Part shown: positions 244 to 45,433 of the stretch, piece by piece
Layout: every line of letters begins with the position of its first letter
Numbering within the stretch: position 1 is the first letter of the stretch
Source of the DNA: Syntrophales bacterium
Lineage (GTDB): Bacteria; Desulfobacterota; Syntrophia; Syntrophales; UBA8958
NCBI GenBank assembly: GCA_023231165.1
Contig: JALNVY010000002.1
Coordinates: 1 to 45,433, forward strand
Reading direction: 5' to 3'
DNA: 45,433 nt
Notes under the pieces: generated by a model
What the model was told of the DNA's origin: nothing
Database searches by the model: none
Seen by the model: only the letters and a program-made list of their open reading frames with translations
Translations under genes and position numbers: made by a program

Positions 244-1836
244 ATGCAAGCCATGCCTATAAGAATCTTCCTTGTTCTGTTTATCCTTGCATTAGTCTAC
301 CCATCATCATTGTTGGCGACTACGGAACAGCGCACCGCCTTGGTCATCGGCAACGGCGCCTACAGTTCCGGTCCTCTGAAGAACCCGGTTAACGATGCCA
401 CGGATATGGCGGCTTCTCTCCAAAAACTCGGCTTCACTGTTATCCTGAAAAGGAACGCCAATCTTGAGACGATGGAGGAAGTTATGGAGGATTTCGGGAA
501 CCGGCTGAAACGAGGTGGCGTGGGTCTGTTTTATTATGCCGGTCATGGGGTTCAGGTGAATGGCGTCAACTACCTCATCCCCGTAGGGGCGAAAATCAAC
601 AAGGAGACGGATGTCCGGTTCAAGGCCTTTGATGCCGGACGGATCCTCGCCGAGATGGAGAACGCCAACAATGGCCTGAACATCGTTCTGTTGGATGCCT
701 GTCGTGATAACCCCTTCGGCAAGAGCTTTCGCAGCGCCTCCCGAGGGTTGGCCATTGTAAGTTCTGCGCCAGCAGGCACATTTATTTCATATTCCACCGG
801 TCCTGGCCAGGTAGCAAGAGACGGCGAAGGTCGAAACAGCCCTTACACAAAAGCTCTTCTTCAATATGTCCAGGAACCGGGTTTGACTATTGAGGATGTC
901 TTTAAGGGTGTTCGCCAGAAGCTGCGCAAAGAGACCGGGCAGGTACCTTGGGAGTTGTCTTCACTGGAGGGAAAGTTCTTCTTTGTCCCCGGTGAGACCA
1001 GTAAAACAGCAGAAGTGGTAAAAGAGACAGCCGCCACTCCCGCAGTGGAATTAGATCCCCAGAGAAGGGAGATTGAAGCAGAAAGGGAAAGGTTGCAGAA
1101 GCAGAGGGACCTGCTCGAACAGAAGGAGGCATTAGCGAAAGAGAAGGAAGAACTGGCCGAAAGAGAGAGGAAACTTGCGATAGCTGTACAACCCTCAGTA
1201 TCGGCGCATCAAATAAAAGAACTTGATGATAACTTTAGAAAGTTAGAAGAAGCAACGCAGGAATTTAAAATGTTGGAACACAAGTTTGATCCACGGACCC
1301 GCGAGATGATGCGGAAAGAACTGGAGTTACAGCGGGAGCTGCTTGTAGAACAGAGGAAGCGACTCGCCGTTGTGGATACGCGTCCCTTTACCACTATAGC
1401 GAAAGAGATCGGGAGAGATGGTCGTTTCATTGCCTATGACAACGGGACCGTTCTGGATACAAGGACAAGCCTGATGTGGGCGGCGAAGGATAACGGTTCA
1501 AATATCAACTGGCATGATGCCAAGAATTATTGCGAAAATTACCGTGGCGGTGGATATTCGGACTGGCGGATGCCGACGCAGGATGAACTGGCGGGGTTGC
1601 ATGACAAAAGCGTTGGATACACACCCGCATGCGCCGCAAGCGGTAATAATGACAAGGTGCAGTTGACTAATTTAATAACTATGAGTTGTTGGGCAGGGTG
1701 GGCTTCTGAAACGCGCAGGTCCGGGGCAGAATCACACGCTGCCGACTTCTATTTCGTCGATGGCGGCTACCGACGCTGGCTTTACCAGTCCGACGTCAAC
1801 CTCACCCGGGCCCTCCCGGTGCGTTCTGGCAAATAG
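244..1836 (+). CDS. Secreted caspase-family (peptidase C14) protein with coiled-coil middle and C-terminal DUF1566/Lcl-type domain
   Basis: 530-aa ORF with GGAGG 8 nt upstream of the ATG. Hydrophobic signal-like N-terminus (IFLVLFILALVYPSSLLA). Caspase hallmarks ALVIGNGAY, YYAGHG (His context) and LLDACRDNPF (Cys context). E/K/R-rich heptad-like stretch at aa ~270-380. C-terminal LMWAAKDNG..NW..AKNYC..GYSDWRMPTQDEL pattern typical of DUF1566. Confidence 0.8.
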   Translation: MQAMPIRIFLVLFILALVYPSSLLATTEQRTALVIGNGAYSSGPLKNPVNDATDMAASLQKLGFTVILKRNANLETMEEVMEDFGNRLKRGGVGLFYYAGHGVQVNGVNYLIPVGAKINKETDVRFKAFDAGRILAEMENANNGLNIVLLDACRDNPFGKSFRSASRGLAIVSSAPAGTFISYSTGPGQVARDGEGRNSPYTKALLQYVQEPGLTIEDVFKGVRQKLRKETGQVPWELSSLEGKFFFVPGETSKTAEVVKETAATPAVELDPQRREIEAERERLQKQRDLLEQKEALAKEKEELAERERKLAIAVQPSVSAHQIKELDDNFRKLEEATQEFKMLEHKFDPRTREMMRKELELQRELLVEQRKRLAVVDTRPFTTIAKEIGRDGRFIAYDNGTVLDTRTSLMWAAKDNGSNINWHDAKNYCENYRGGGYSDWRMPTQDELAGLHDKSVGYTPACAASGNNDKVQLTNLITMSCWAGWASETRRSGAESHAADFYFVDGGYRRWLYQSDVNLTRALPVRSGK

Positions 1837-5219: not shown

Positions 5220-5652
5220 TTTTATTTCCTCAATGATCTCCTTGATTCTTTGTTTAGAGTATCTTTTTCCGGTTCACGTTCTTGTTAAACATTGGCCAGA
5301 TGAGACATCCCCTGCTTGCCCAACATAGACCCGTTTGGACTTCCGGGGGAATCCGAGTCTCGCTCGGGGGAAAACCGTCATTAGCGCTCCCTTTTTTGGC
5401 TTATACATAAGTATATTCTTCCTCTCTAATCAGCATATTACTAATGTAAGCGCAAAAAATCCTTCCCGCCATTGCCGGTCAATATTCAATATTTAACAGA
5501 CAAACAGGAAAGGATAGGAAGTGGACTATTCAATTGATGCTCTGGGATACAAAAGATATGTCATGCCCTTGGACAATCAAGAGCATGTCGGAGCAAGGTG
5601 TGGGATCACCTCAAGAAACCCATATTTCGTTGTGGATGTGCTTTCGCGGACC

Positions 5653-5694
5653 CACGGTCTACTTAAAAATACTATTTGATTGAATACTACTTCC
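5653..5694 (-). promoter_or_regulatory. Partial third copy of the promoter-like part of the ssb/primase leader element (GGAAGTAGTA-N10-TAGTATTTT)
   Basis: The reverse complement GGAAGTAGTATTCAATCAAATAGTATTTTTAAGTAGACCGTG aligns with the 5' 42 nt of elements at 11374-11494 and 29171-29292. It lies 20 nt outside the IS3 end and faces orf 4653-5219/topB. Confidence 0.4.
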
Positions 5695-5782
5695 GGGCAG
5701 GGGAACGGGAAGACAGAGGTGGTCGGGGTTGTTTGGACAGGAGACAGGTTTTTATAAGTGGGAAATTGCCCTTGGTTCATGA

Positions 5783-6613
5783 TCATGCCGCAGCCTGTCT
5801 CTGCGATTGTGTCCCGAAGTAAACCATAGCAGGTGTCTTCCTGTCAAAGTTATTATGCCATCTCTTTTCGTTGTAGAATTTGAAGTAGCTGGCAAGTCCG
5901 CTTTTCACCTCCGTCATTGAAGAATATGCCTTCAGATAAATGTCCTCGTACTTAACGCTTTTCCATAACCGTTCGATAAAAACGTTGTCCATCCATCGGC
6001 CCTTCCCATCCATACTGATGGCAATATCGTTTGATCGAAGGGTATTCGTAAATGCTTCTGCTGTGAACTGACTGCCTTGATCCGTGTTGAATATATCCGG
6101 ACAACCATATTTTGCGATAGCTTCTTCCAGGGCATCGGTACAGAATGCACCGTCCAGAGTATTGGAAAGCCGCCAGGAAAGAACCATCCGGCTCGCCCAG
6201 TCCATGATCGCTACGAGGTAGCAAAACCCTCTTGCCATGGGAATGTAGGTGATGTCGGCCGCCCACACATGATTCTCCCTGCTGATCTCGAAACCCTTGA
6301 GAAGATAAGGGTACTTCAAATGTCCAGGATGTGCCAACGACAGCCTCGGCTTTACGTAGAGCGCTTCAATGCCCATCCGGCGCATCAAACGACGTACTCG
6401 GTCACGTCCGATATCATAACCCTTGGCCCACAGCTCATCGCGGATCTTCCGGCTGCCATAGAACGGATAGGCAAGATGAATCTCATCAATCTGACGCATC
6501 AACTCCATATCCATTGCACTGATGGGAACTGGAGTATAGTAAAAACCGGATCGGGAAAGGTTCAGAATCGCACATTGCCGTTTCACTGGAAGTTCGTCTG
6601 TCCTGTCGATCAT
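5783..6613 (-). CDS. IS3-family transposase OrfB (DDE/rve integrase core)
   Basis: 276 aa. DDE context WAADITYI, FNTDQGSQFT, ERLWKSVKYE. The ATG overlaps the OrfA stop (ATGA). Confidence 0.9.
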   Translation of the reverse strand: MIDRTDELPVKRQCAILNLSRSGFYYTPVPISAMDMELMRQIDEIHLAYPFYGSRKIRDELWAKGYDIGRDRVRRLMRRMGIEALYVKPRLSLAHPGHLKYPYLLKGFEISRENHVWAADITYIPMARGFCYLVAIMDWASRMVLSWRLSNTLDGAFCTDALEEAIAKYGCPDIFNTDQGSQFTAEAFTNTLRSNDIAISMDGKGRWMDNVFIERLWKSVKYEDIYLKAYSSMTEVKSGLASYFKFYNEKRWHNNFDRKTPAMVYFGTQSQRQAAA

Positions 6614-6954
6614 CTCTTTGCGCTCGCATCGCCGATGCGACCGAGCGCGCTTGATAAAAAATCATTTTCCATCGAAAGTTGTCCAATTTTGGCATGAAGA
6701 TCTTTCACGACCGGCCCTTGATCTGGTTTCCGCTCCTTGCAGTATATTTCCTCTGCATGCGCCAAAAGCTGCTTCTTCCACTCTGTAATCTGATTCGGAT
6801 GAACTTGGTAACGCTCGGCAAGCTCAACGATCGTCTGATCCCCCTTCTGAGCCTCCAAGGCCACCTTGGCCTTGAACGCCGGTGCATGATTCCGTCTTGG
6901 TCTTTTGCTCATTTGCTGATCCTCCTGGGATTCATTATAGAGCAATCCTCCCAC
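6610..6954 (-). CDS. IS3-family transposase OrfA (HTH)
   Basis: 114 aa. RRNHAPAFKAKVALEAQKGDQTIVELAERYQVHPNQITEWKKQ is a typical IS3 OrfA HTH/leucine-zipper region. Confidence 0.9.
   Translation of the reverse strand: MGGLLYNESQEDQQMSKRPRRNHAPAFKAKVALEAQKGDQTIVELAERYQVHPNQITEWKKQLLAHAEEIYCKERKPDQGPVVKDLHAKIGQLSMENDFLSSALGRIGDASAKR
6655..6661 (-). other. Putative programmed -1 frameshift heptamer T_TTT_TTA producing an OrfAB fusion
   Basis: On the minus strand, GAT TTT TTA in the OrfA frame. The -1 frame has a TGA just upstream and is open from TTT TTT ATC through the OrfB ATG. This is the classic IS3 arrangement. Confidence 0.55.
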
Positions 6955-7136
6955 TTATGCACCTGTCCAGTTTTGCCAGACCCGCTCTGACGATAATTAC
7001 TTCTTTTCAGGCCGGAAGCAAAGAGTTCAATGTGTGCGAAAGAGATTCAAGGAGACGCGATGTGCATGAAAGAGGCTCATTTTCGGTGCTTATGATGCAC
7101 TTTTGATCACTATCCCTGCCTATTTAGCACCACCCG

Positions 7137-7167
7137 GGAAGTAGTATCGTATCGAAGGATATATAAT
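7137..7167 (+). promoter_or_regulatory. Promoter-like region for the partition operon (GGAAGTAGTA box plus TATAAT)
   Basis: GGAAGTAGTA at 7137-7146 and TATAAT at 7162-7167, 30 nt upstream of the parM-like ATG. AGGAGG SD at 7185-7190. Confidence 0.4.
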
Positions 7168-9251: not shown

Positions 9252-9703
9252 GCCGCACCTCTGTCCTGAACTTGCCGGAAACAATTATCAATATACTCCG
9301 GGTCAACGTCTGCATCGAAATTCCGTACCAGGCACTTGTTACCGTTAATCAGGGAAATTTCATCATCGCAAGCACCCTCGACATCGAAATCCAGAACCAG
9401 AACTTCAACTGGGACGTCTGACGAAACTCCCGTAATTAGGCCACCCTCTAAGCCGATCTGGATGCCCACCGGGCGCTTGGACCTATGCCCTCCAAACTCT
9501 GCTGGATATTCCTTGTCGCAAGCGTCACACCTGTACCCGGTTTCTTCGTAACCTTCGTGCATCTCGATATTGCCGGCATTATCGTAATCACAAGTCACAA
9601 TGCCTTCGCTGTCCTCCGCAATGACCACTCCGCTCTGCGACGTTTCAACCATCGCAAACTCAGTGAACTCCGCGTGTCCACACTCGCAGGTCTTAAACTT
9701 CAT
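9248..9703 (-). CDS. Acidic Cys-containing hypothetical protein
   Basis: 151 aa. CxC..(n)..CDxC pattern (TCECGH ... YRCDACD). ATGA overlap with the upstream gene. Confidence 0.6.
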   Translation of the reverse strand: MKFKTCECGHAEFTEFAMVETSQSGVVIAEDSEGIVTCDYDNAGNIEMHEGYEETGYRCDACDKEYPAEFGGHRSKRPVGIQIGLEGGLITGVSSDVPVEVLVLDFDVEGACDDEISLINGNKCLVRNFDADVDPEYIDNCFRQVQDRGAA

Positions 9704-10332
9704 GTCATAACCTCCTTCTCGGTCTTGATGATTCCCGCTATTTCTTTTACGGCTGCATCTTGTGTCTCACCATCAGCAGTAGCGAAGTAGTAATCACCCC
9801 TGTATCTCAGGCCATTCAGAAGGAAAATGGCCTTTCCGTCCGGACTGATCTGCGTTCCGCCTATCTGATTGCCGCCCGACACGGTGAAAGTGCCGACCGC
9901 AATCGGCATGCCGTCATCATCGCCTTCCGACCATTTGGCGTCCAGACCTTCGCTCTTCGCTATGGCGTCGATATTCAAGACGCTTTCCTTTGGGCTGTAA
10001 CCTTCGTTGTGGTCTTCATCCTGTTGTGTGACGAATGCGGCGAATCCCGCCGTTGCATCCAACTCGTATTTTCCCTGATGATTTTTCTCAGCGGTGTAAT
10101 GCGTGTATGCCGTGCGATCGCACGCATGGAATTCGATACCCAGGGCGTCGCAGAGATGCCGTAAATCGGTCAGCATGTCCGTGATGCAAGCCTCCGTGTC
10201 CTCCACTACACACTCGTAACCGGCGCGCAGAGCGCGTTTGGCAATGACGAGTCGGTATAGTCGCGGATCTTTGTCGGGAAGATTCTCCGGGGTTTCTCCC
10301 ATTTTATAATCTGGTATTTCTTCGATATTCAT
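9700..10332 (-). CDS. Acidic hypothetical protein
   Basis: 210 aa, D/E-rich. AAGGAGA SD upstream. First of the ATGA-coupled chain. Confidence 0.6.
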   Translation of the reverse strand: MNIEEIPDYKMGETPENLPDKDPRLYRLVIAKRALRAGYECVVEDTEACITDMLTDLRHLCDALGIEFHACDRTAYTHYTAEKNHQGKYELDATAGFAAFVTQQDEDHNEGYSPKESVLNIDAIAKSEGLDAKWSEGDDDGMPIAVGTFTVSGGNQIGGTQISPDGKAIFLLNGLRYRGDYYFATADGETQDAAVKEIAGIIKTEKEVMT

Positions 10333-11348: not shown

Positions 11349-11373
11349 TGTACATCTCCTTTCTTGGGGGTTA

Positions 11374-11494
11374 GGTAATTTGTCAGTCCTTCGCAGGACG
11401 AAAAAAAACCGCATCTGTACCGTTGTAAAGCGGCTCAGCCATGCGGCTATGTTCGTGACCTACTGAAAATACTAATTACCTAGGTACTACTTCC
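11374..11494 (-). repeat. Leader element copy A (promoter-like box, 30-nt invariant block, terminator-like hairpin, GNRA mini-hairpin) upstream of ssb
   Basis: About 85% identical over ~122 nt to 29171-29292, with 30 nt identical (11435-11464 = 29233-29262). It starts at the stop codon of the upstream membrane-protein gene. Confidence 0.7.
11401..11447 (-). terminator. Intrinsic-terminator-like hairpin plus U8 inside leader copy A
   Basis: Minus-sense GCCGCAU-gg-CUG-a-GCCG-cuuuacaa-CGGU-a-CAG-AUGCGGU followed by UUUUUUUU. It lies between the promoter-like box and the ssb SD. Confidence 0.5.
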
Positions 11495-12212
11495 ATTCAT
11501 TTTCCTGATTCATGAGTTTTGTGGTTTTTCTTGCTCCCAGGAAAATTCCTGCGACAGGTATGGTGACCAAGAGGGACGTCGTGAAGGCCACAAAATAAGC
11601 CGAGATCAGAAATACCGGCCTGAAATCTTGTAACCACTGATACAGCTTGTTCAAGCTGTAGTACTGTATTAACCATCTCATCTTGAGCAACCAAACGGCA
11701 AGATTGTGAGGTTCAAGCACTACGAAGTAAATGAAGTGGAAGGCCAGAAAAGCAATTACCAGCTTGAGTATCGCACCCGCTACCAGCCCCATGATCAGGT
11801 TCTTGATTGCGGCCTTTGAAATTTCGCCTATGTAGTATTTGCCTAAAACGGCGAAGAAGAAGGCATAACCGACAGTAAAACCAATCGCGATCAAAAAGGC
11901 GAAGCATTTATCGTAGAAGGTCGGATCATAGGAGCCAAATATGGGTAGGTATCTCTCGATTACTCCAATGGCTATAGGTGTCAGGAATGCGGAAACAAGA
12001 CCGCTAATGAATGCTCCCTTGAAGCCCACTTCGAAAAAGGCCAGCTTGCCGGCAAGCGTGAAAAAATCAACGGGGATGGTGCTGCCGGACCTTTCAACCA
12101 CGTAATACTGTTGTATCTCCGAAATCGCATCCAGCAATCCCTTTGGCTTGCCCGGCGTGGGCTGAGAGCCAAGAAATACATCACCTCTTTGAGAATCCTT
12201 ATTTAATGACAT
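11487..12212 (-). CDS. Polytopic membrane protein, unknown function
   Basis: 241 aa. About 55-aa soluble N-terminus followed by 5-6 hydrophobic segments. GGAGG SD. Confidence 0.65.
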   Translation of the reverse strand: MSLNKDSQRGDVFLGSQPTPGKPKGLLDAISEIQQYYVVERSGSTIPVDFFTLAGKLAFFEVGFKGAFISGLVSAFLTPIAIGVIERYLPIFGSYDPTFYDKCFAFLIAIGFTVGYAFFFAVLGKYYIGEISKAAIKNLIMGLVAGAILKLVIAFLAFHFIYFVVLEPHNLAVWLLKMRWLIQYYSLNKLYQWLQDFRPVFLISAYFVAFTTSLLVTIPVAGIFLGARKTTKLMNQENEWK

Positions 12213-12499: not shown

Positions 12500-13812
12500 C
12501 CTTTTCTCCCTCCTTCCTTTGGTTTGACACTCTTTATAGAATAAAAAGACCCGTCCTTGTTCCTTTCCAGCTCCGAGGGCATGCCAAATGCCTCTATCTT
12601 CAGTGGAACGAGGAGTTTTGACTGAGGATAACCTTGCGTTGTTAATATTTCGTAAAGCCTGACGAAGTCTTCTTTATTAGGAAGCTCTGAGCTCACTGCT
12701 TCGATCTCTCTTAGACTTGTAACGATTTTCTTGAGTGCATATTCAATATCCCTGTCCCTGATAACAGATAAATCCGCTATCTTTTGCAATTTTGCATATT
12801 CTCTCGCGGTCTCCTGGAGGAACATCTTATCGAAGTAAACGTTCCCCCCATAAGAAAATGCTTTCCAGGCTTTTCCCGTCTGAGGGGCGTTTATCTGTGG
12901 TTTAAGGAGTTTCAGAAACTCCTTCGGGTCGAACCAATCTCGCCATTCTTTCATTTGTAAGCCATATACCGCGGCTATTTCCGTTTCCCTCGCCTTGCCG
13001 TCAGCAGACTGCAAACAAGCAGTGAACTGTTCTGATGACTTACCCTGATGATGGTCCTTAATTGCTTGCAGTACTATGTCTATCCCCTTGGGCATCTGAC
13101 CCTCGAAGATGGAGGCAACCTTTTCCGCGCTTATGATGGGGTGATCATGTTTGGAGTAGGTGTCGCCTACTCTCAGCGACGGGAGCTTACCCAGGTCATG
13201 GCCCAGGGCAGCCACAATCATGCTGGGTATAACGGACTCATGCCAGGACGACTTGATTAGCTCAATCCCAAACATTGCCACCTTGAAGCTGTGCGCCCGG
13301 AGCGTCACTTGTGATAGAGCAGCTTTCACACTGTTTATGTCGTTATCCGCTTTGTCTGTGCCCACTTGAACAATTGAGGGACAGCCGCCCTGGTCATCGA
13401 GAATCTTGATGATCTGGTATATGCCATCGAGCGTGTTTACGTGTTTGCACATGTTCTCGTAGGGTTTTACTGCGTTGCGTATGAACTCTGTTGCTTCATT
13501 ACTCCAATCGCTGTTTTTGTCGAAGGGAGTGGGAGCCCCAGTGGCTCCGATTTTCGGCAGTTCGGGCTTGTCCGGTCCACCAGTAAGGACGTCCGGCAGC
13601 GGCGGCGTTTCGGAAGGCGAGGTGTTTGGAGAGGCAGCCGGTGGTGTGCCCATACTTTCCACCGTGACAACTACGGACGGTGTTTGCGCTTTTTGATAGC
13701 TGTTGTTGTATTTTAGCCAGATGTTGCTCAGTTCCTTAAGCGGCACCACAATTTCCTCTTGGGGGGCGCTTAAACTCTCATTATGCCACCAATTCTTGAT
13801 CGTTTTTAGCAT
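12496..13812 (-). CDS. HD-domain phosphohydrolase-superfamily protein with Pro-rich N-terminal region
   Basis: 438 aa. LRAHSFKVA ... ALGHDLGK ... KHDHP ... IKDHHQ matches the H..HD..D metal-ligand pattern. Confidence 0.7.
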   Translation of the reverse strand: MLKTIKNWWHNESLSAPQEEIVVPLKELSNIWLKYNNSYQKAQTPSVVVTVESMGTPPAASPNTSPSETPPLPDVLTGGPDKPELPKIGATGAPTPFDKNSDWSNEATEFIRNAVKPYENMCKHVNTLDGIYQIIKILDDQGGCPSIVQVGTDKADNDINSVKAALSQVTLRAHSFKVAMFGIELIKSSWHESVIPSMIVAALGHDLGKLPSLRVGDTYSKHDHPIISAEKVASIFEGQMPKGIDIVLQAIKDHHQGKSSEQFTACLQSADGKARETEIAAVYGLQMKEWRDWFDPKEFLKLLKPQINAPQTGKAWKAFSYGGNVYFDKMFLQETAREYAKLQKIADLSVIRDRDIEYALKKIVTSLREIEAVSSELPNKEDFVRLYEILTTQGYPQSKLLVPLKIEAFGMPSELERNKDGSFYSIKSVKPKEGGRKG

Positions 13813-14311
13813 GATCTCCTTCCTCAGTAGCTTTTATGATGCGAGACAGCTTGCTGATTACAACTTCCTGGTGCCGGGGGGTAAGGTCGTAGATGGAATC
13901 TTTGCCGGGCACCTTCTCTCCATTATTTCCCGTAAAAGTCGTCAACTCCCGCAGCAATTCCTGCTGAGACTTACCTTTGATATTCGATCCTTTCTTCAGC
14001 AGGCTCAGCAGCTTCTTGTCCTGTTCGCTGTTGACCGTAAATGGCACGGTGTCGCTGTCCATGAGGGAGAACAGATTTGCAGCGACGAATTCGGTGCAGG
14101 GCAGGTGAAGTAAAAGGCGTATGCCTTTGCGGAGTCCCATGGACTTGATGACGCCCGTCGTCTCCATTTTGCCGATCGTGAAGTGCCCGGGCTTGTCTTG
14201 GATGGATGCGAATATCTCCGATAGTGCGCTATCCTTTTCAGCGCAGAGCAATTGCACGGATATACTGTCCTTAAGCACGGTATAATTTACTATTCTTGCT
14301 TCAATCTTCAT
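13781..14311 (-). CDS. Hypothetical protein
   Basis: 176 aa. AAAGGGA SD. Overlaps both neighbours, so it appears to be an operon member. Confidence 0.6.
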   Translation of the reverse strand: MKIEARIVNYTVLKDSISVQLLCAEKDSALSEIFASIQDKPGHFTIGKMETTGVIKSMGLRKGIRLLLHLPCTEFVAANLFSLMDSDTVPFTVNSEQDKKLLSLLKKGSNIKGKSQQELLRELTTFTGNNGEKVPGKDSIYDLTPRHQEVVISKLSRIIKATEEGDHAKNDQELVA

Positions 14312-14762
14312 GGCTTATCCCTTTTACGTCATCAACTGGTACGCGGACGGCAACCATTCTCCCATAGATGCTGAGATCGACCAAAGTGTCGTTACCAATC
14401 ATAGCCCGCACAATGCCGATAAAGCCGCTGTATTCGCCTCGCACCATCTGAACCATCATTCCATCTGCGATTATATGTTTCACAACGCCGGTCATCAGCC
14501 CTTTGACCTGTTCTGACGTAGCCTCCGTTACACCCAGTATGTATGGTATATTCTGTATTCCCTGGGGTGGCAGGATTGTCTCACAAACAAGAAAACCGCT
14601 AAATGAAGGTGGAATACTACAGTCAACACCCTGTGTATGCTGATCATGTTCAGTTAAGTCCATTCTGAGTAAATCACGCAAAGAAGGTTGAGGGCGGCGT
14701 TTCGCAAGGAGGGCCTTGACTATCTTCTCCTTACCGCTTGTAACCGAGATTATGTAGGGCAT
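14301..14762 (-). CDS. NusG/RfaH-family paralog (NGN plus KOW), putative operon-specific antiterminator
   Basis: Start taken at MPYIISVTSGKEKIV (NGN-like, compare WYVV..SG.E). FSGFLVCE (compare FPGYVLV). C-terminal KOW-like MVQMVRGEYSGFIGIVRAM..DLSIYGRMVAVRVPVDDV. Confidence 0.6.
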   Translation of the reverse strand: MPYIISVTSGKEKIVKALLAKRRPQPSLRDLLRMDLTEHDQHTQGVDCSIPPSFSGFLVCETILPPQGIQNIPYILGVTEATSEQVKGLMTGVVKHIIADGMMVQMVRGEYSGFIGIVRAMIGNDTLVDLSIYGRMVAVRVPVDDVKGISHED

Positions 14763-14798
14763 GTTCGGTATTTCGTCCTTTGAGGGTATTTGTCTTGA

Positions 14799-14833
14799 TA
14801 TTACTTCTCTCAGGACAGGGACTGGAAGTAATA
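14799..14833. promoter_or_regulatory. Inverted pair of RGAAGTAATA boxes in the divergent intergenic region
   Basis: TATTACTTCT (14799-14808) and GGAAGTAATA (14824-14833) face outward towards the NusG-like gene and the plus-strand operon. The right box extends to the palindrome GAAGTA-A-TACTTC. Confidence 0.4.
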
Positions 14834-14859
14834 CTTCAGAAAAGGAACAAGGAGGGCAC

Positions 14860-15042
14860 ATGAACACAATATGTTTTGATTTGAGCAGAGAAGAGTTCGA
14901 AATTGAGTGGGGACGACTGATCGATAAAAGAAAAATGTTCCTTCATCGTATAGAAAAAAATAGGTCTTCTAAAGGACTAATGGCTATCAATCTAAATGTG
15001 GATGGCGTGCGGGCCGTTATCAATAATAATTATGACAAATAA
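14860..15042 (+). CDS. Small hypothetical protein
   Basis: 60 aa from the ATG at 14860 with AAGGAGGG SD. The track ORF start at 14761 has no SD and overlaps the NusG-like gene. Confidence 0.4.
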   Translation: MNTICFDLSREEFEIEWGRLIDKRKMFLHRIEKNRSSKGLMAINLNVDGVRAVINNNYDK

Positions 15043-17975: not shown

Positions 17976-20900
17976 CTATCTCTTTAATGTGCGCAGCCGC
18001 ATGAGTACTGAAGTGACTTCTCCGAATATAGCAAGACCGGTTTCTCCTGCCACTACTGTTCCCTCAGCCTTTTTCTTATCCATTCCTCCTGCCTTAAGCC
18101 CCTCCCTCACGATATGAGATGGCATTCCATCGGTATCCACGCCCGTCTTGTAATTTAGGCGATCATCGTTCCTGTTGCGAACCATCCCCAAGTCACTGCT
18201 TGCGTGCAGAACGGCTCCATCCTTCACGCTCAGAGTGGAAGTTGTCACACCGTCAACGGTTTGTGTCTGCGATGTGATAACATTCTTGTAAGCCCCCGCA
18301 ACAACAGCGCCCGTCATCGGGTTGAGTTGTCTTTCCTTATATCCTTCATGTCCTGCCATCCTTTCGTTAATGACATTGGCGCGTTCTTCTATATAGCCGC
18401 TCTTGACGGACGTCTGATTATTAACTGTTACTGAATGCCCAAAGATATGTTGGTCGGAATCATCGTGTACGTGCGACGTGCCGGTAAGGGTTTTGTGGGT
18501 CCTATCGTCAAGACTCGACGTGCCGGCAAGAGTTTTGTGGGAATCATCGTGTAAACTCGAATCGCCGGTACGAACCCGTGTTCCGGTATCAGTAGATTGA
18601 ACATCCTTTACATTTCTTTCTGCCCCTTGGGTAGCCTGGAGCGACGTTATACGCATACCGTCGGCACTCTTGGCTTTGACTGTATCGCCTACCTTGACAC
18701 GGGTTTCGATCCCCATGTTCTTGAGCTGTTCGTTCAGGGCACTGACATTGTTTTCCCTAACGCCTATATCGACGCCTTGCGCTGACGTCAGCCCTTTATA
18801 ATACTCCGCCCTGCCTTCGCGAGTGTTCATGTCATGACCCGCAAGTTGTCCCATATTGTAAGTTTCCAACGCAGCATAACCATGTTGCAGCTCACCCAGG
18901 GTCATTGCCTCCGCAGCTTTGTTGAACCCCATATCCTTCAAATAGTTTTGTGCACCGAGGTTCTTGGCGGCTTCATACATTTTTCCCGCTTCTACGTTGC
19001 CTGCCAGCGCACTTTCCCATGATCCCCCGGTTACTTTTGCTCGCTCCGTGGCAGCGGCGATGGCGCCGCCCATTTCGCCCTTAGCGCCTGCTGCCGTGGC
19101 ATCATATAGCGTTCTCATGCTCCCGCCTGCGCCGTTTAATTTCCCGCTCTGCGCCGCCATGTTTCCGAATTCATTAATCGCCGCTGTATTTCCAGCCGCT
19201 CCAATATAGCCTTCTGGTCCTCCGGTCAAAGGTATTAGCTCATTCAGCGCCTTTGTTCTCGCCATGTTGCCCATCAGTTGCGCCTGGTATCCCGCCTGGC
19301 TCGATAAGGCCGTGCTTCCCGCCAGGGTCGTGTTTCCCATGCTCATGTTTCCCATGTTCAGGTTACCCATGCCCGCGACCTGCGATCCTGTACTTGTAGC
19401 AGTCGCAGGCGCCGCGCCTCCTCCAACTGCCTGAATGGCTGATGTCATTGCGTAGGCGCCGCCAGAAATGAGGCCCCAGGCTATCGCCGGAACCACAGGA
19501 GAAAGCGAACCGACATAACCCAGAGTAAGCTCAAGCTGATCCGCTACGAGATCCATCGTTTTCAGGGAAGGCGACTTTACGTTTTCCGTAAGGAAAATGT
19601 TGTTCATTACCCGCACAACTTCCTGATCAGCGTAAAGGTTTATAATGACGTAAATCGGTACCCACAGTTGGAGCCAGAGTGCGATTTTGCCATAAAATAT
19701 TACGGCAGACAGCCCGCCAAGCACGAAGAAGAGCGGCAGTAGGGCGGACATGCCGTATATGAGGCCCTCCACAATTGCCCGTGTGGTATGAACTATCGTG
19801 TTGAAAAACTTCGCCGCAGTAAGCCATCCGGAGGTCGTTGCCCGCCTTGATGCCGTCATAGCGGAAGATGTTGGGCTGCCCATGTAGGCGAGATATGTGT
19901 CCACAGAATCCCGTAAGAGGTTCGCAGCGGCAATTGTCTTGAGTATCGTATTGCTGTCTACTGAGCTGTCCGCAAAATATCTTGCCATTACCGCCGATGT
20001 CAGCGCTCCGGTGCCAAGGTTCAGGGCATTTCCCGCCCCGGAAATACTGGATAACCCGGCATTTCCCGATAGTTTCATCTCAATGTCTTTTCTCCATTCC
20101 GGCAAGTAGGAGTTCCATGCCGAGTCTATTTCGTCTATGGCGACGGCGCAGGACGCATACCCCGCATCGTTCGGTGCAAGGATCACCATATTCGGGTCTC
20201 TGTATAAACTGCTTTTGAGATGAGTCATGAGGTCTTCGGTCGTGAATAGCTCGTCCAGACGTGATGTTTTCTCACCTGCGTTGCCGTCAAGAGATGCATA
20301 GTTGGGAAAAACGCATTTGATGTAGTATTCCCGAAGCGACTTCGTAACGAGATGGGCGGACGAAGGCAGACCCGTAGTGCTACTGTTGGGGGGGTATATG
20401 TTCATAAGAGCATCGGTATATTTCGCGCCGAGTGCAATACCGCCGTTCCTGAACTGCAAAGAATCGGGCAGGCTGAACACCGTCTCGAACTCCTTTCCTA
20501 TCGTATCACCGATCGTAGACATCATGTGTGGGATAAACGCGCTCGGAAATGGCACGTTGCCCACTACCTGTGTCTGTGAGGGGTCCACCCGGTCAATGAT
20601 CGACACCGTAGCACTTGGACTCAGGAAGAGGCCGACCGCAACAAAGGCCGTTAATGCGATGGATAGGATCGTGGTAAAGCCCTCGCCTCTATATATGTCC
20701 TTGTTGCCGCCCATCATTCCCATACCGCTGGCACCCAAAAAGGACGACATCGAAATCATTACGCCATACATCAAGGCAAGTAGCAGTCCGATCTTGACCA
20801 GGCTGTGAACGAATCCGCCGCTTGTTATCATGGCGATGCCGTTGAAGATGGTAGCCAGAAAGTCCCCGGAACCATAGGCATAAACCTCGAAAGTACGGCC

Positions 20901-23561: not shown

Positions 23562-23597
23562 TCGATTCCTCCTGTGATCATATTACTTCCAAGGGCC

Positions 23598-23637: not shown

Positions 23638-25554
23638 TCAGGCGGCCCTCCTTTTTTTCAGAAGGGTGTATTTTAACAGACCGTGCAGAGCGTTCGGCAA
23701 CTGCTCAATCTTGGAGATGATCGTCACACTCTCATTGTCGATCCAGGAGGATGTATATTCGAGTGCATGTCCGGAATCACTCAGAAGAACAACATAAAGC
23801 TCAATTCCATGCAACCGCAAAAGAGCAACCGCTTTTTTCGCCTGATCGTCGTCGTTAGGATCGCCATCGGTAAATAGAATGGCGATCCTTCTTGTTTCCA
23901 GGCGGTGAGTCAACATCATCCCTGCCCAGAGAGCAGCCTCGGCCATAGGAGTTCCGCCGTCGGCGTTAATATTAAAGAACTGCTCGGGTCTGCAACGCTC
24001 CTCAAACTCTTTAGCCAGCAAAATGTCGGAGTATGTGTTCCGGTCCTCGCCAGGAAATAGACCAATACAGTGGGTTATTCCCGGAAGGCTTTCCAAGCTG
24101 CGAGATGTAACATACGCAGACTGAACTGCCAGGGAGATGTCTTCTTTCATGGAACCGGATCGGTCAACCAGCAATGCGATTGCCGTATTGACCTTCTCAC
24201 GCTCTCGTCGGGTTAAGAAAACTCTGTTGTCTGGAGTCTGGGTGCCGACCAGGTGGATTGATCGAGAGTCGATCCGGCTTCCCACCATCGACGGATATTT
24301 CTGTTTGAGGCCGATCGCCTGAAACAGACCCGACAACTGGGTCTTCATCTTTGCGGTTTTCCGGCTCTCTTGCGCAAGCAGAGCCTTGAACGCCTCAAAC
24401 ATACCTCTCTGGTGGTAGAGGTTGGGTAAAGATTGTTTTGTGGTTTTTGGTACGTACGCTACCGCGTCGTCGCCTTTTTCCGCAATCTCCTTCACCAGCT
24501 TTTCCTCAAGGGCATCCTTGAGCATTGCGCCCAGGTCAGTTACATCCTCGTCAGGGGGCGGGGTATCCGCCAAACCTTGGAGGTTTTTTAATTGCTGCCG
24601 GATATCAGAGCCAGACGGTGAAGCGTCTCCCTTTCCGTCGTCTCCGCCTTCGTTACCATCCTCATCTTTGTCACTGTCAAACGTGGACTGGGATGACTCT
24701 TCGTCTCCATCTTTATCCTTGTCCATGTCGTTATTCTCAGACTGAGACTCAGAAGGTTCTCCGTCTCCATCTACTTCGGAGTTTCTATCTTCGGCCTTGT
24801 CGGACATAGACTGGGAAGGCTCTTTGTCCGCATCTTCATTCTTGTTCTTGCCGTCCTTATCGGACTGAGATTCAGAAGGTTCTCCATCTCCAACTTCGTC
24901 CTTGTCCTCCTTTTTGTCTTCCGGTTTTTTCGAAGAAGAGGGAAGGGGAGGAGGTGAGGCGACAAGCTGTTTCAGCTTTTCCGCTACGTCTCGGCAATCC
25001 AGAGTGGACCGGCAATCCTTCACCGTGTCCACAATTGCGGCGAATTCGTCACAAAAGGTATCGCCAAACGCAGTGCGGCACGACGCTTCTATGACGATTT
25101 CACGCTTCGCCAAGGCTTGTTGACGAAGAATCCGCGTCCGGGCGCGGGCAGCGGCCCAGACTTGCAGATTTCCTATTAAATGGTCTGTTATTGGGAAACC
25201 GCCCTGCTTAACCACGGCTTCCAGCAACTTCGCAGTGTTGATGACGACACCGGGGTACTTCTCCCCCTGCTGACGCTCTATGCGAACGTCTTCAAGGAGA
25301 TTTAGCCAGCAGTTGCCGCCCACCTCGATGCCGAAGTCTGTCAAGGCGATATGGGCCGCCTCGTGGTCGATATACCCGCGAGCAAGAACCATCGCCTCCT
25401 CGTCGTCTTCCGGCAGGGATGGGATAGTGATGTTCCTCCCGTCTGTGAAGGCGTTGCTGCCTCCGATATTCAACATTATGCCCCGCCTTTCAGCCAGGGC
25501 TTGCATGGCGATCCGAAGACCGCCGATCGACTTTGAAATTCTATTCTTATTCAT
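23638..25554 (-). CDS. vWA-domain protein with N-terminal HExxH module and acidic repeat linker (CobT/DUF2201-like partner of the AAA+)
   Basis: Start at MNKNRISK (GGAGGAG SD). HEAAH at the N-terminal domain. D/E/S/K-rich linker with repeated GDGEPSESQS. C-terminal MIDAS VDRSGSM..GGTPM..FTDGDPND. Confidence 0.8.
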   Translation of the reverse strand: MNKNRISKSIGGLRIAMQALAERRGIMLNIGGSNAFTDGRNITIPSLPEDDEEAMVLARGYIDHEAAHIALTDFGIEVGGNCWLNLLEDVRIERQQGEKYPGVVINTAKLLEAVVKQGGFPITDHLIGNLQVWAAARARTRILRQQALAKREIVIEASCRTAFGDTFCDEFAAIVDTVKDCRSTLDCRDVAEKLKQLVASPPPLPSSSKKPEDKKEDKDEVGDGEPSESQSDKDGKNKNEDADKEPSQSMSDKAEDRNSEVDGDGEPSESQSENNDMDKDKDGDEESSQSTFDSDKDEDGNEGGDDGKGDASPSGSDIRQQLKNLQGLADTPPPDEDVTDLGAMLKDALEEKLVKEIAEKGDDAVAYVPKTTKQSLPNLYHQRGMFEAFKALLAQESRKTAKMKTQLSGLFQAIGLKQKYPSMVGSRIDSRSIHLVGTQTPDNRVFLTRREREKVNTAIALLVDRSGSMKEDISLAVQSAYVTSRSLESLPGITHCIGLFPGEDRNTYSDILLAKEFEERCRPEQFFNINADGGTPMAEAALWAGMMLTHRLETRRIAILFTDGDPNDDDQAKKAVALLRLHGIELYVVLLSDSGHALEYTSSWIDNESVTIISKIEQLPNALHGLLKYTLLKKRRAA

Positions 25555-29170: not shown

Positions 29171-29292
29171 GGTAATTGCGTCAGCCCTTCGCAGGACGTA
29201 AAAAAGCCGCACCTGTCCCGTTGTAAAGCGGTTCAGCCATGCGGCTATGTTCGTGACCTACTAAAAATACTAACTGTCTAAGTAATACTTCT
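29171..29292 (-). repeat. Leader element copy B upstream of the primase-like gene, in the divergent region with the T4CP-like gene
   Basis: About 85% identical to 11374-11494. Same order: AGAAGTATTA box, TAGTATTTT, 30-nt invariant block, hairpin plus U-tract, GNRA mini-hairpin. Confidence 0.7.
29199..29245 (-). terminator. Intrinsic-terminator-like hairpin plus U6 inside leader copy B
   Basis: Minus-sense GCCGCAU..(same internal structure)..GUGCGGC followed by UUUUUUA. Confidence 0.45.
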
Positions 29293-29329
29293 AATAGAAC
29301 AGAAAAATGAAGCAGAAGGAGGGAATATT

Positions 29330-44672: not shown

Positions 44673-44941
44673 TTCGCTTAACCCCTCTTAGAAGGACTCT
44701 TAAAAATTTCTTTGTTGTTGATCATTGTGGAATGAAATCTATACTTGCCTATGTGCTAAGTCAACTCTTGATTACAGTACCGAGCGGATCTGCTCCAAAA
44801 GGGAGAACTTCGCTTTCAGATGTATGCGCACTTTCGAATGGGATTCATTGGCTGCCCGAATTTACCTATGTGAGGACTTGTATTGTATGCCGTGGAAAAC
44901 GTATGACTTATCGGTTAAAGTCCGATCATGGGAGTTCGGTA

Positions 44942-45433
44942 GTTCGCCCATGTAGCTTGAGGGAGGTGTTAAGGGTAACCTGAAACGCTAAGTTCCCTGA
45001 CAAAGGCTCCTTAAGGGAGTCGAGCAAAGCTGCGGGTCGCAGCGCAAGCGAACCCAGACGTAGCCTCGAAATTCACAATGGAGTTGTCGACCCCGTAATA
45101 CAAGGGGGAAGACCGGAGCATCTATCCTGACGAAAACTACCAGAACCGATAGATGGGCTTCCGGGGTAACAGGGGTGACACGCAGTGGCAGCCATGCGAC
45201 AATAAACACGGGAGACCCTTGTCGATGCCCTACAGGAGGGCAACCGGTAGATATAAGGAAACGAAACTCTACGGGGTCGGCAGGGGAGTCGGAGTTGCCC
45301 ATATTACCGCTTGTATCCCAAGGACAGCATAACCTTGGGAGAGGGAAGGGGCAATACTTTTATCACGTTTCAGAAGAAGTAAAGGAAAGGGGATTGCACG
45401 GAAGTGCTGAAAACTCCAGATAACATCCGGGAA
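44942..45433 (+). mobile_element. 5' part of a probable group II intron (ribozyme domains I-III plus start of the RT ORF), truncated by the window end
   Basis: GC-rich, stem-rich non-coding stretch. GTTCGCCCATGTAG..GGGAGGTGTTAAG resembles the canonical 5' GUGCGCCCAGAUAGGGUGUUAAG. An ORF with an RT-like N-terminus starts about 460 nt downstream. The 5' boundary is uncertain. Confidence 0.5.
45404..45433 (+). CDS. N-terminus of a probable intron-encoded reverse transcriptase (partial)
   Basis: GTG start 10 nt after AAGGAAAGGGG and preceded by an in-frame TAA. Encodes MLKTPDNIRE, compare the ..L.(S/T)P.NL..A.. N-termini of group II IEPs. Runs off the window. Confidence 0.4.
   Translation, partial: MLKTPDNIRE

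Follow-up and report, generated by a model that had tools for sequence, protein, structure and literature searches.

Our analysis of a 45,433-nt stretch of DNA from a Syntrophales bacterium (contig JALNVY010000002.1; hereafter the window) identified a short non-coding cassette that recurs in front of ssb, of a primase-like operon and, in a different form, of a third operon, and that contains canonical intrinsic terminator anatomy in the 5′ leader. Pfam annotation of its genes marks the window as a piece of an F-type conjugative element, and the cassette is kept at orthologous sites in related elements. An earlier note, made by reading the sequence by eye, had proposed a shared, oriented, non-coding regulatory cassette at these places, and this proposal held. 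The same element encodes a small protein that, by profile comparison and structure prediction, belongs to the NusG/Spt5 family. The reading that we put forward, and to which we give about an even chance, is that the cassette joins an element-specific promoter to a promoter-proximal intrinsic terminator, and that polymerase passes this terminator with the aid of a NusG paralog encoded by the element itself.

Copies of the cassette in the window

Two full copies, A upstream of ssb and B upstream of the primase-like operon, lie on the minus strand (Table 1). A repeat search aligned positions 11382-11493 with 29180-29291 over 112 nt without a gap, at 89% identity, so that the likeness noticed by eye stands and its manual estimate of about 85% is corrected. 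The 30-nt block AGTAGGTCACGAACATAGCCGCATGGCTGA that had been reported as identical is indeed so (11435-11464 in copy A, 29233-29262 in copy B). The flanks of the two copies are unrelated and the similarity ends at the edges of the repeat; flanking coding DNA is not duplicated, which disposes of a segmental duplication that would include coding flanks. The parts listed in the earlier note, namely a GAAGTAnTA box (box1), TAGTATTTT (box2), a hairpin followed by U8 or U6, a mini-hairpin (P3) and a Shine-Dalgarno (SD) sequence, are all present in both copies. The spacer between the boxes had been given as 11 nt and is in fact 10 nt: GAAGTAnTA-N10-TAGTATTTT has three matches in the window, all on the minus strand (5666-5693, 11466-11493 and 29264-29291; 0.04 expected from shuffles), and the same pattern with N11 has none. 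The odd N-terminal extensions of two predicted open reading frames were correctly recognized as the translated repeat (MRFFFVLRR.., and VRLFYVLRR.. with a GTG start).

The third match belongs to copy C, upstream of a 188-aa gene and topoisomerase III. It had been described as a partial copy of 42 nt; the promoter-like part is real (5658-5694, GGAAGTAGTAT-N9-TAGTATTTT-TA-AGTAGA), but it is more than a fragment, as it heads a separate leader of ~240 nt. Beyond the boxes this leader differs from those of copies A and B and is 82% identical to a leader in a relative (L010). It ends in a hairpin (5459-5515) and U6, and pairing in the hairpin survives a U-A to U.G change. All three window copies run from promoter-like boxes through a leader to a hairpin with a U-tract.

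A cassette family in related elements

Further copies were sought by an exact-pattern scan of GTDB (one genome per species), by a scan of JGI metagenomes, and in the regions upstream of homologs of the primase-like protein (49-70% identity) and of the NusG-like protein. These searches gave 24 distinct copies, found in conjugative elements of Syntrophales/Syntrophus type and of Nitrospirota type. The GTDB scan returned full copies on three contigs of one 'delta proteobacterium' metagenome-assembled genome (MAG), and the metagenome scan ten further loci with the cassette. A covariance model, R1, was built from the 17 alignable copies and also recovers the Nitrospirota-type copies, at 29-53 bits. 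Without exception the copies lie between genes and point the same way as the gene that follows. In the relatives they precede ssb, the primase operon, a DUF4942 gene and a 95-aa gene that heads another operon, as well as a homolog of the window gene at 9700-10332 and genes for a RadC-primase, an SNF2 helicase and integrase-like proteins. Going by these sequence matches, the cassette family spans two phyla, Desulfobacterota and Nitrospirota.

Searches in other collections returned little. The single match in IMG/VR is a chance one, inside an AT-rich coding region, and blastn (word size 11) of the element against the 72,556 plasmids of PLSDB, including IncF/IncI plasmids, gave no match at E 0.01. 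Rfam at gathering score matched the window only at a group II intron at its edge (D1-D4, RF02003, 88.9 bits; 44908-45047, plus strand); at permissive E-value thresholds the element regions gave noise only, at ≤16 bits.

Nitrospirota-type elements also carry putative box1+box2 promoters with other short leaders (L029:15665-15730 and L029:14099-14171, both on the minus strand, and L004:6835-6931), one of which precedes an ssb-like start (MFNKIILIGNL..).

Anatomy and covariation of the leader

The order of parts is common to the family. In the 5′ half GGAAGTAnTAY (box1) is followed, after a spacer of 9-10 nt, by TAGTATTTT or a near variant (box2); 3-4 nt further on comes (G)TAGG, then 2-4 nt and CGAA, and then a hairpin that directly abuts U5-8. 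The U-tract is followed after 1-10 nt by the P3 hairpin, a few nucleotides, A(U/A)UACC and, at 5-25 nt, the SD. The hairpin with its gapless U5-8 is present in 24/24 copies, with predicted folding energies of -6.6 to -27.5 kcal/mol, and it begins 14-31 nt (mostly 14-18 nt) after the conserved AGG downstream of box2. Its stems are unrelated between lineages (GCCGCAU/AUGCGGC, GGCGCGA/UUGCGCC, GCCACAG/CUGUGGC, GUCGAUG/UAUCGGC and GGCUAUA/UAUAGCC), and the same is true of P3, which is found in every copy (GUCCU/AGGAC, GUUCA/UGAAC, CCGCC/GGCGG and CCUGCC/GGCAGG). The segment AGTAGG-T-CACGAAC between box2 and the terminator is invariant among the alignable copies, and TAGG..CGAA is retained in the Nitrospirota-type ones. 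Of the two options raised in the earlier note, a promoter with an attenuator or a small RNA gene, this anatomy fits the former: the hairpin and U-tract stand between the boxes and the SD in every copy.

The structure is supported by covariation. Across the 17 alignable copies 95.3% of cells are standard pairs, a value that 0/500 shuffles reach, and pairing falls to 36-52% when the partner is slid by 1-3 columns. Five pairs have changes on both sides. The conserved helices also hold 19 G.U/U.G cells, which would be C.A mismatches on the opposite strand; since only the sense strand can form them as pairs, it is the structure of this strand that is under selection, either as RNA or as non-template DNA.

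ATTACC precedes the SD in 20/24 folded copies and AAAACC does so in one more; the box is absent in L026, L028 and L033. As RNA it can pair with the leader's 5′ AGGU, by ≤6 bp in the Nitrospirota copies. A long-range AGGU/ACCU helix is possible in most copies, and as both of its sides are invariant it is uninformative on covariation. The AUUACC box is also complementary to GGUAAU of the 16S 530 loop. A promoter located after the terminator, with a T-rich -35, P3 in the spacer and the ATTACC region as -10, was considered and rejected: AATTAC lacks the essential A-11 and T-7, and the invariant CC is not promoter-like. A hairpin between box1 and box2 suggested by RNAfold was rejected as well, being broken by substitutions without compensation in L015, in the Nitrospirota copies and in others, and the boxes are therefore treated here as DNA motifs.

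Some copies carry additional structure. An extra hairpin lies between GTAGG and the terminator in L019, L022 and L033. Long-form cassettes (L001:3764-3860 on the minus strand, L010:300-404 and L018:4300-4385) have a conserved, structured insert of ~90 nt between P3 and AUUACC, which keeps its place in them too; the insert carries ..CCUGAACGUCAUCCUGCGGGAGGC..GGGUUGUGUUCACAGG.., has a predicted folding energy of about -42 to -47 kcal/mol, and is not matched by Rfam at the thresholds that were applied to the window.

Box1 at the heads of transcription units

GAAGTAnTAY occurs eight times, at seven sites, in the 45 kb (0.3 expected), and all occurrences lie just upstream of transcription units: those of copy C, ssb and the primase operon, and the ParM-like, NusG-like, 93-aa and TrbI-TraF-TraH-TraG units. 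From this placement we infer that box1 serves as a promoter or operator signature peculiar to the element. The earlier note had seen the cassette as specific to early or establishment genes, a view that does not agree with box1 also heading the TrbI-TraF-TraH-TraG, ParM-like, coupling-protein and NusG-paralog units.

Box1 takes the form of a palindrome, AAGTAnTACTT, in many copies. That of copy B, formed with the next two bases (29280-29290), also reads on the plus strand toward the coupling-protein gene. Inverted pairs of box1 are found at the NusG-like gene and in L026. In the window, a 93-aa gene with a strong SD (14761-15042, plus strand) is divergent from the NusG-like gene, and the ~100-bp gap holds the two inverted copies, which may be a shared control point of both genes.

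Which of the boxes would be the -10 can be approached from the sites that have box1 without box2. Such a box1 precedes the SD of several genes by 7-14 nt and, in two distant contigs (L036 and L037), the ATG of NusG-like genes by exactly 8 nt; with these distances, TAnTAY of box1 fits the -10 of short-leader or leaderless mRNAs. Box2 of the cassette (TAGTAT), itself -10-like, would on this view fall at about +3 to +8. Alternatively, box2 may be the -10 and box1 an upstream factor site, an assignment that does not suit the box1-only sites, which have too little space before the SD for a -10 and a start. The case for a promoter is strongest at copy B: it takes up a divergent intergenic region of 190 bp, and only 37 bp separate its box1 from the neighbour's start codon.

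A NusG paralog encoded upstream of the ssb cassette

The gene at 14301-14762 codes for a protein of 153 aa that has no Pfam match at E 0.01, apart from a weak one to KOW5_SPT5 (0.008). Only 27 representative relatives turned up among 1.8 billion proteins when these were searched exhaustively with HMMER. Of these, 22 went into a profile, which matched NusG and Spt5 chains of the PDB at E 1e-10 to 1e-17, in alignments that span NGN and KOW and include T. maritima NusG 8-176 and M. jannaschii Spt5 1-143. An AlphaFold2 (AF2) model made with the alignment had a predicted local distance difference test (pLDDT) score of 88, an alpha/beta N-domain and a five-strand C-terminal barrel, and its top Foldseek matches were all NusG, Spt5 or RfaH, with probability 1.00; a single-sequence model (pLDDT 38) was not usable. 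On profile and predicted fold, then, the protein is a NusG/Spt5 (NGN+KOW) paralog, from a small family that lies beyond Pfam thresholds.

This gene comes first in an operon with little space between its genes (14762 down to 11487), which encodes the NusG-like protein, a 176-aa protein, an HD-domain protein and proteins of 91 and 241 aa, and which ends exactly at cassette A. L006/L017, L013 and L033-35 have retained the order NusG-like, ~170 aa, HD, ~95 aa, ~245 aa, cassette, ssb, with proteins 50-65% identical. Upstream of the paralog itself box1 is present, with no hairpin and U-tract. The second gene of the operon (13781-14311, minus strand) codes for a conserved protein of ~167-176 aa with no Pfam match, which follows the NusG-like gene in all relatives seen and is itself followed by the HD-domain protein; it could have an UpxZ-like modulating role.

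Proposed termination and read-through

Under the proposed mechanism, transcription that starts in the cassette, or that enters it from the upstream operon, would mostly stop at the hairpin and U-tract, yielding a short RNA of about 60-85 nt, and the downstream operons would be expressed only when polymerase reads through. The operons so gated would be that of ssb with small genes and that of the primase-like protein, MoxR ATPase, DUF3150 and CobT/VWA proteins; the 188-aa gene and topoisomerase III would be gated likewise through their different leader. No competing antiterminator fold, leader peptide or leader open reading frame, or aptamer was found by folding and Rfam, and mostly only ~15 nt precede the hairpin. 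As there is also no room for a later promoter, read-through most likely needs a protein acting on polymerase. The likeliest such factor would be the NusG paralog, whose operon would start from a box1 promoter, has no terminator there and runs directly into the ssb cassette. The system would in that case operate in the manner of LoaP, RfaH/ActX or UpxY. Candidate recruitment or pause signals would be the (G)TAGG..CGAA stretch or the P3 hairpin. What is deduced here is thus the promoter role of box1 and box2, the start site, termination in vivo and the action of the paralog as the read-through factor.

A more specific and distinctly doubtful version is a lambda-Q-type promoter-proximal checkpoint run by the paralog. 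Box1 (GGAAG-TAnTAY) would be the true -10 region of the element-specific promoter; box2 (TAGTAT), at about +3 to +8, would hold sigma and cause a pause near the invariant GTAGG; and the paralog would replace sigma at the pause, so that polymerase resists the terminator 15 nt on. If this were true, one small protein would switch on DNA-processing genes from several dispersed cassettes, in a family of conjugative elements covering Desulfobacterota and Nitrospirota.

Several observations weigh against read-through by the paralog. No RNA run contains the sequence, and coverage in four lake metatranscriptomes was zero. Whichever box is taken as the -10, there is no conserved -35, and a scan for the sigma-70 consensus (TTGACA/TATAAT, 16-18 bp) does not call the boxes; each cassette has two -10-like hexamers, TAnTAY and TAGTAT, and either could be the true -10. 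The enterobacterial ops sequence GGCGGTAGnnTG matches the window at chance level, with none of the matches in a leader, and P3 lies after the terminator, not before it. The tie between paralog and cassette rests on synteny, and no NusG-like gene was seen in the ~20-kb pieces of Nitrospirota-type cassette loci, so this tie is documented for Syntrophales-type elements only. Inside the downstream operons 22 terminator-like sites were found against 19.7 expected; as they are not enriched, processivity beyond the leader is not indicated.

Other explanations

The alternative that fares best, though we hold it to be unlikely, is that box1 is an operator or activator site for a DNA-binding protein of the element, followed by a leaky constitutive terminator and involving no dedicated antiterminator. 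Control would then be by zygotic induction, as with Reg576 of p576, and the hairpin and U-tract would insulate the operon from upstream transcription and damp its expression. Box1 is partly palindromic, stands at seven operon starts and forms inverted pairs in the NusG-like and L026 intergenic regions, the window has two XRE-type helix-turn-helix (HTH) genes, and the terminator of copy A sits at the end of the upstream operon. The establishment genes of p576, moreover, have common repeated operators bound by a repressor (PMC6294495). An operator accounts for box1 but not for the universal terminator or the conserved stretch after box2: strong stems with U6-8 follow the promoter in 24/24 copies, an arrangement that is costly unless read-through is regulated, and the GTAGG..CGAA stretch between box2 and terminator is kept across phyla, which suggests a signal acting on transcribing polymerase. 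In addition, the NusG paralog is encoded immediately upstream, and no ribbon-helix-helix (RHH) or other repressor is tied to box1.

That the copies are multicopy small RNA (sRNA) genes is, in our judgement, improbable. A terminated RNA of ~60-85 nt would act in trans, by base pairing or protein titration, and downstream expression would be incidental. Promoter-like boxes, a short transcribed region and a strong terminator are the anatomy of an sRNA gene, and members of the Syntrophales group share a conserved apical loop (..GACAA/UACAACGG). In every copy, however, the distance to the SD and start codon that follow is fixed and there is no space for a further promoter, so that read-through is required for essential element genes. 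It is the architecture that persists in distant copies, and not the single-stranded 5′ part, the would-be seed, or the loop. A duplex scan of the window gave no standout target, the best of 11,238 windows (z = -5) being on the non-coding strand. The terminator is thus the sole support left for the sRNA option of the earlier note.

We give very little credence to an Frpo/ssi-like single-stranded DNA promoter, in which the entering strand would fold and host RNA polymerase would transcribe early genes before the complement is made: the genes served (ssb, primase-like and topB, with RadC, SNF2 helicase and DUF4942 in relatives) are typical of leading regions, Frpo repeats precede ssb in F-like plasmids (PMC11541004), and a single long hairpin (z = -2.7) is formed by folding the template strand of copy A, but only copy A folds end to end, by means of a spacer GGTAAT absent from the other copies, no arm rebuilds a duplex -35/-10 and no TTGACA/TATAAT pair is formed, the 19 G.U/U.G cells become C.A mismatches in the very strand that must fold, box1 also heads transfer and partition genes, which are not early genes, and blastn against the 72,556 plasmids gave no similarity. 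The cassette is not an Frpo homolog and nothing supports a single-strand promoter; the parallel with IncF/IncI repeats drawn in the earlier note finds no sequence relationship, and the conserved structure is on the sense and not on the template strand.

Features of the window and gene content of the element

Table 1. Cassette copies, their parts and associated features of the window (positions on the forward strand).
Feature	Position	Strand	Remarks
Cassette copy A, upstream of ssb	11374-11495	-	Repeat family D1; covariance model R1, 134 bits
Copy A, box1 GGAAGTAGTAC	11484-11494	-	Includes -10-like TAGTAC
Copy A, box2 TAGTATTTT	11466-11474	-	Second -10-like hexamer, TAGTAT
Copy A, conserved AGTAGG-T-CACGAAC between boxes and terminator	11451-11464	-	Candidate transcript start, pause or recruitment region
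Copy A, terminator	11401-11448	-	Hairpin 11408-11448, U8 11401-11408; dG (folding free energy) -15.4 kcal/mol; gap to U-run 0; covariation
Copy A, small hairpin P3 GTCCTGCGAAGGAC	11386-11399	-	GUCCU-GCGA-AGGAC
Copy A, ATTACC box	11374-11379	-	Then SD AAGGAG at 11356-11361
Cassette copy B, upstream of primase-like operon	29171-29293	-	
Copy B, box1 AGAAGTATTAC	29282-29292	-	
Copy B, box2 TAGTATTTT	29264-29272	-	
Copy B, terminator	29200-29245	-	Hairpin 29206-29245, U6 29200-29205; dG -18.7 kcal/mol; gap to U-run 0
Copy B, P3 hairpin GTCCTGCGAAGGGC	29184-29197	-	GUCCU-GCGA-AGGGC, one U.G pair
Copy B, ATTACC box	29171-29176	-	
Copy C, whole leader, upstream of 188-aa gene and topoisomerase III	5450-5695	-	Covariance model, 24.8 bits
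Copy C, box1, box2 and AGTAGA	5684-5694, 5666-5674, 5658-5663	-	
Box1-only site upstream of ParM-like (ALP_N) gene	7136-7147	+	Motif at 7138; Pfam
Box1-only site, 7 nt before SD of TrbI-TraF-TraH-TraG operon	23568-23590	-	Motif 23580-23589; Pfam
NusG/Spt5-family paralog, 153 aa, candidate antiterminator	14301-14762	-	Profile against PDB, AF2, Foldseek
Putative promoter region of NusG-paralog gene, no terminator	14794-14837	-	Direct box1 GAAGTAATAT at 14798-14807
Inverted box1, faces divergent 93-aa gene	14824-14834	+	Motif at 14825

The transfer genes of the element code for TrbI, TraF, TraH and TraG_N, and there is a TraD/VirD4-like coupling protein, whose gene (GTG 29330) is divergent from the primase-like operon. 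That operon begins with a primase-like Toprim/CHC2 protein (ATG 29140) and continues with a MoxR-type AAA ATPase, DUF3150 and a CobT/VWA protein. The ssb gene (ATG 11348) matches PF00436 at E 1e-34, and topoisomerase III (topB, PF01131) comes after the 188-aa gene (ATG 5219). The window further holds a gene for a ParM-like actin (ALP_N), the two XRE-type HTH genes, defence cargo and an IS3-family insertion. It has neither an oriT nor a relaxase; the presence of ssb, primase and topB is suggestive of a leading region. The nearest protein homologs are in Syntrophales and Syntrophus MAGs, and DNA of the element was detected in metagenomes from groundwater, landfill, lake and sediment.

Some other observations concern the rest of the window. 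The IS3-family insertion (5783-6954, minus strand) lies immediately upstream of copy C and consists of orfA (6610-6954) and orfB (rve and HTH_21; 5783-6613). In-frame tandem repeats were found at 18450-18570, three 42-nt units within the TraG_N gene, and at 24664-24900, two ~120-nt units, 76% identical, within the CobT/VWA gene. At the left end, adjoining topoisomerase III, is a gene (244-1836, plus strand) for a caspase-like Peptidase_C14 protein with an Lcl C-terminal domain.

Comparison with known systems

At the lambdoid late promoter PR′, which works with Q, a -10-like pause element lies in the initially transcribed region and is followed by the terminator tR′. The cassette resembles it in its succession of putative promoter, conserved promoter-proximal sequence and near terminator, which would give a short RNA unless polymerase is modified, and its two -10-like hexamers, 15 bp apart, could be a promoter and a sigma-dependent pause. 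It differs in that no Q-like gene was identified, in its many copies per element, and in that pause and start are only predicted.

Among systems run by specialised NusG proteins, the LoaP leaders of dfn and mln in Bacillus velezensis have an RNA hairpin and an intrinsic terminator (PMC12691694). In both cases a NusG paralog is encoded with the regulated locus, the target leaders have a small hairpin together with an intrinsic terminator which is, or here would be, the control point, and one leader element is repeated before more than one operon. The UNCG hairpin of LoaP, however, is upstream of the terminator, whereas the small hairpin here is downstream and its loop is not conserved. The hosts are also different, here Desulfobacterota and Nitrospirota, as are the setting, a conjugative element, and the protein, a separate small paralog family beyond Pfam that is known here from sequence alone.

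The plasmid-borne PrfaH/ActX of IncX plasmids acts via an ops-like site (PMC11880322), and UpxY via opsX (PMC11685472). What the present case has in common with RfaH/ActX is a NusG paralog that is carried by a conjugative element as the first gene of an operon (PMC11880322; PMC7819879), and the paralog would likewise act through a leader signal downstream of its own promoter. Unlike there, no ops is found here, and several dispersed cassettes would be targeted instead of one site. RfaH, moreover, works chiefly against Rho and polarity rather than against an intrinsic terminator near the promoter, and the KOW predicted here is a beta-barrel with no sign of the helical autoinhibited state. The conAn system is similar in being processive antitermination dedicated to operons of a conjugative element; it depends on a protein and an RNA, not on a NusG paralog, acts at one site only, where the conjugation operon begins, and belongs to Firmicutes (PMC8191782).

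Two further systems are comparable in the genes they control. In p576 several establishment promoters of one conjugative plasmid have a common short motif and are co-regulated through Reg576 (PMC6294495), as box1 might be; in that plasmid an RHH repressor binds the motif, a dual TTATCCC operator, and there is no leader terminator, whereas no repressor was identified here. The Frpo/ssi repeats of IncF/IncI plasmids are, like the cassette, dispersed homologous non-coding repeats before ssb and other establishment genes (PMC11541004, PMC9849209). The cassette, at about 120 bp against ~300 nt, has no sequence similarity to them, and its structure is on the sense strand, with a terminator and without the duplex -35/-10 mimic.

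Control of establishment genes is known only in a few model plasmids, by Frpo (IncF/IncI), Reg576 (p576) and ActX/PrfaH (IncX). The present system, if read correctly, would be a third design, found in uncultured anaerobes, in which a dispersed cassette of promoter and terminator is paired with a small NusG paralog family. The novel part would be this pairing with a previously unrecognised family, the parallel with IncF/IncI being functional at most, and the few specialised NusG regulators on record would gain a compact new example. As the cassette is a short element with sharp limits and several copies, and the candidate factor has only 153 aa, the model lends itself to direct tests in vitro or in a surrogate host. 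In metagenomes, the box1 motif and the cassette model can in turn be used to annotate operon starts and regulons of these elements.

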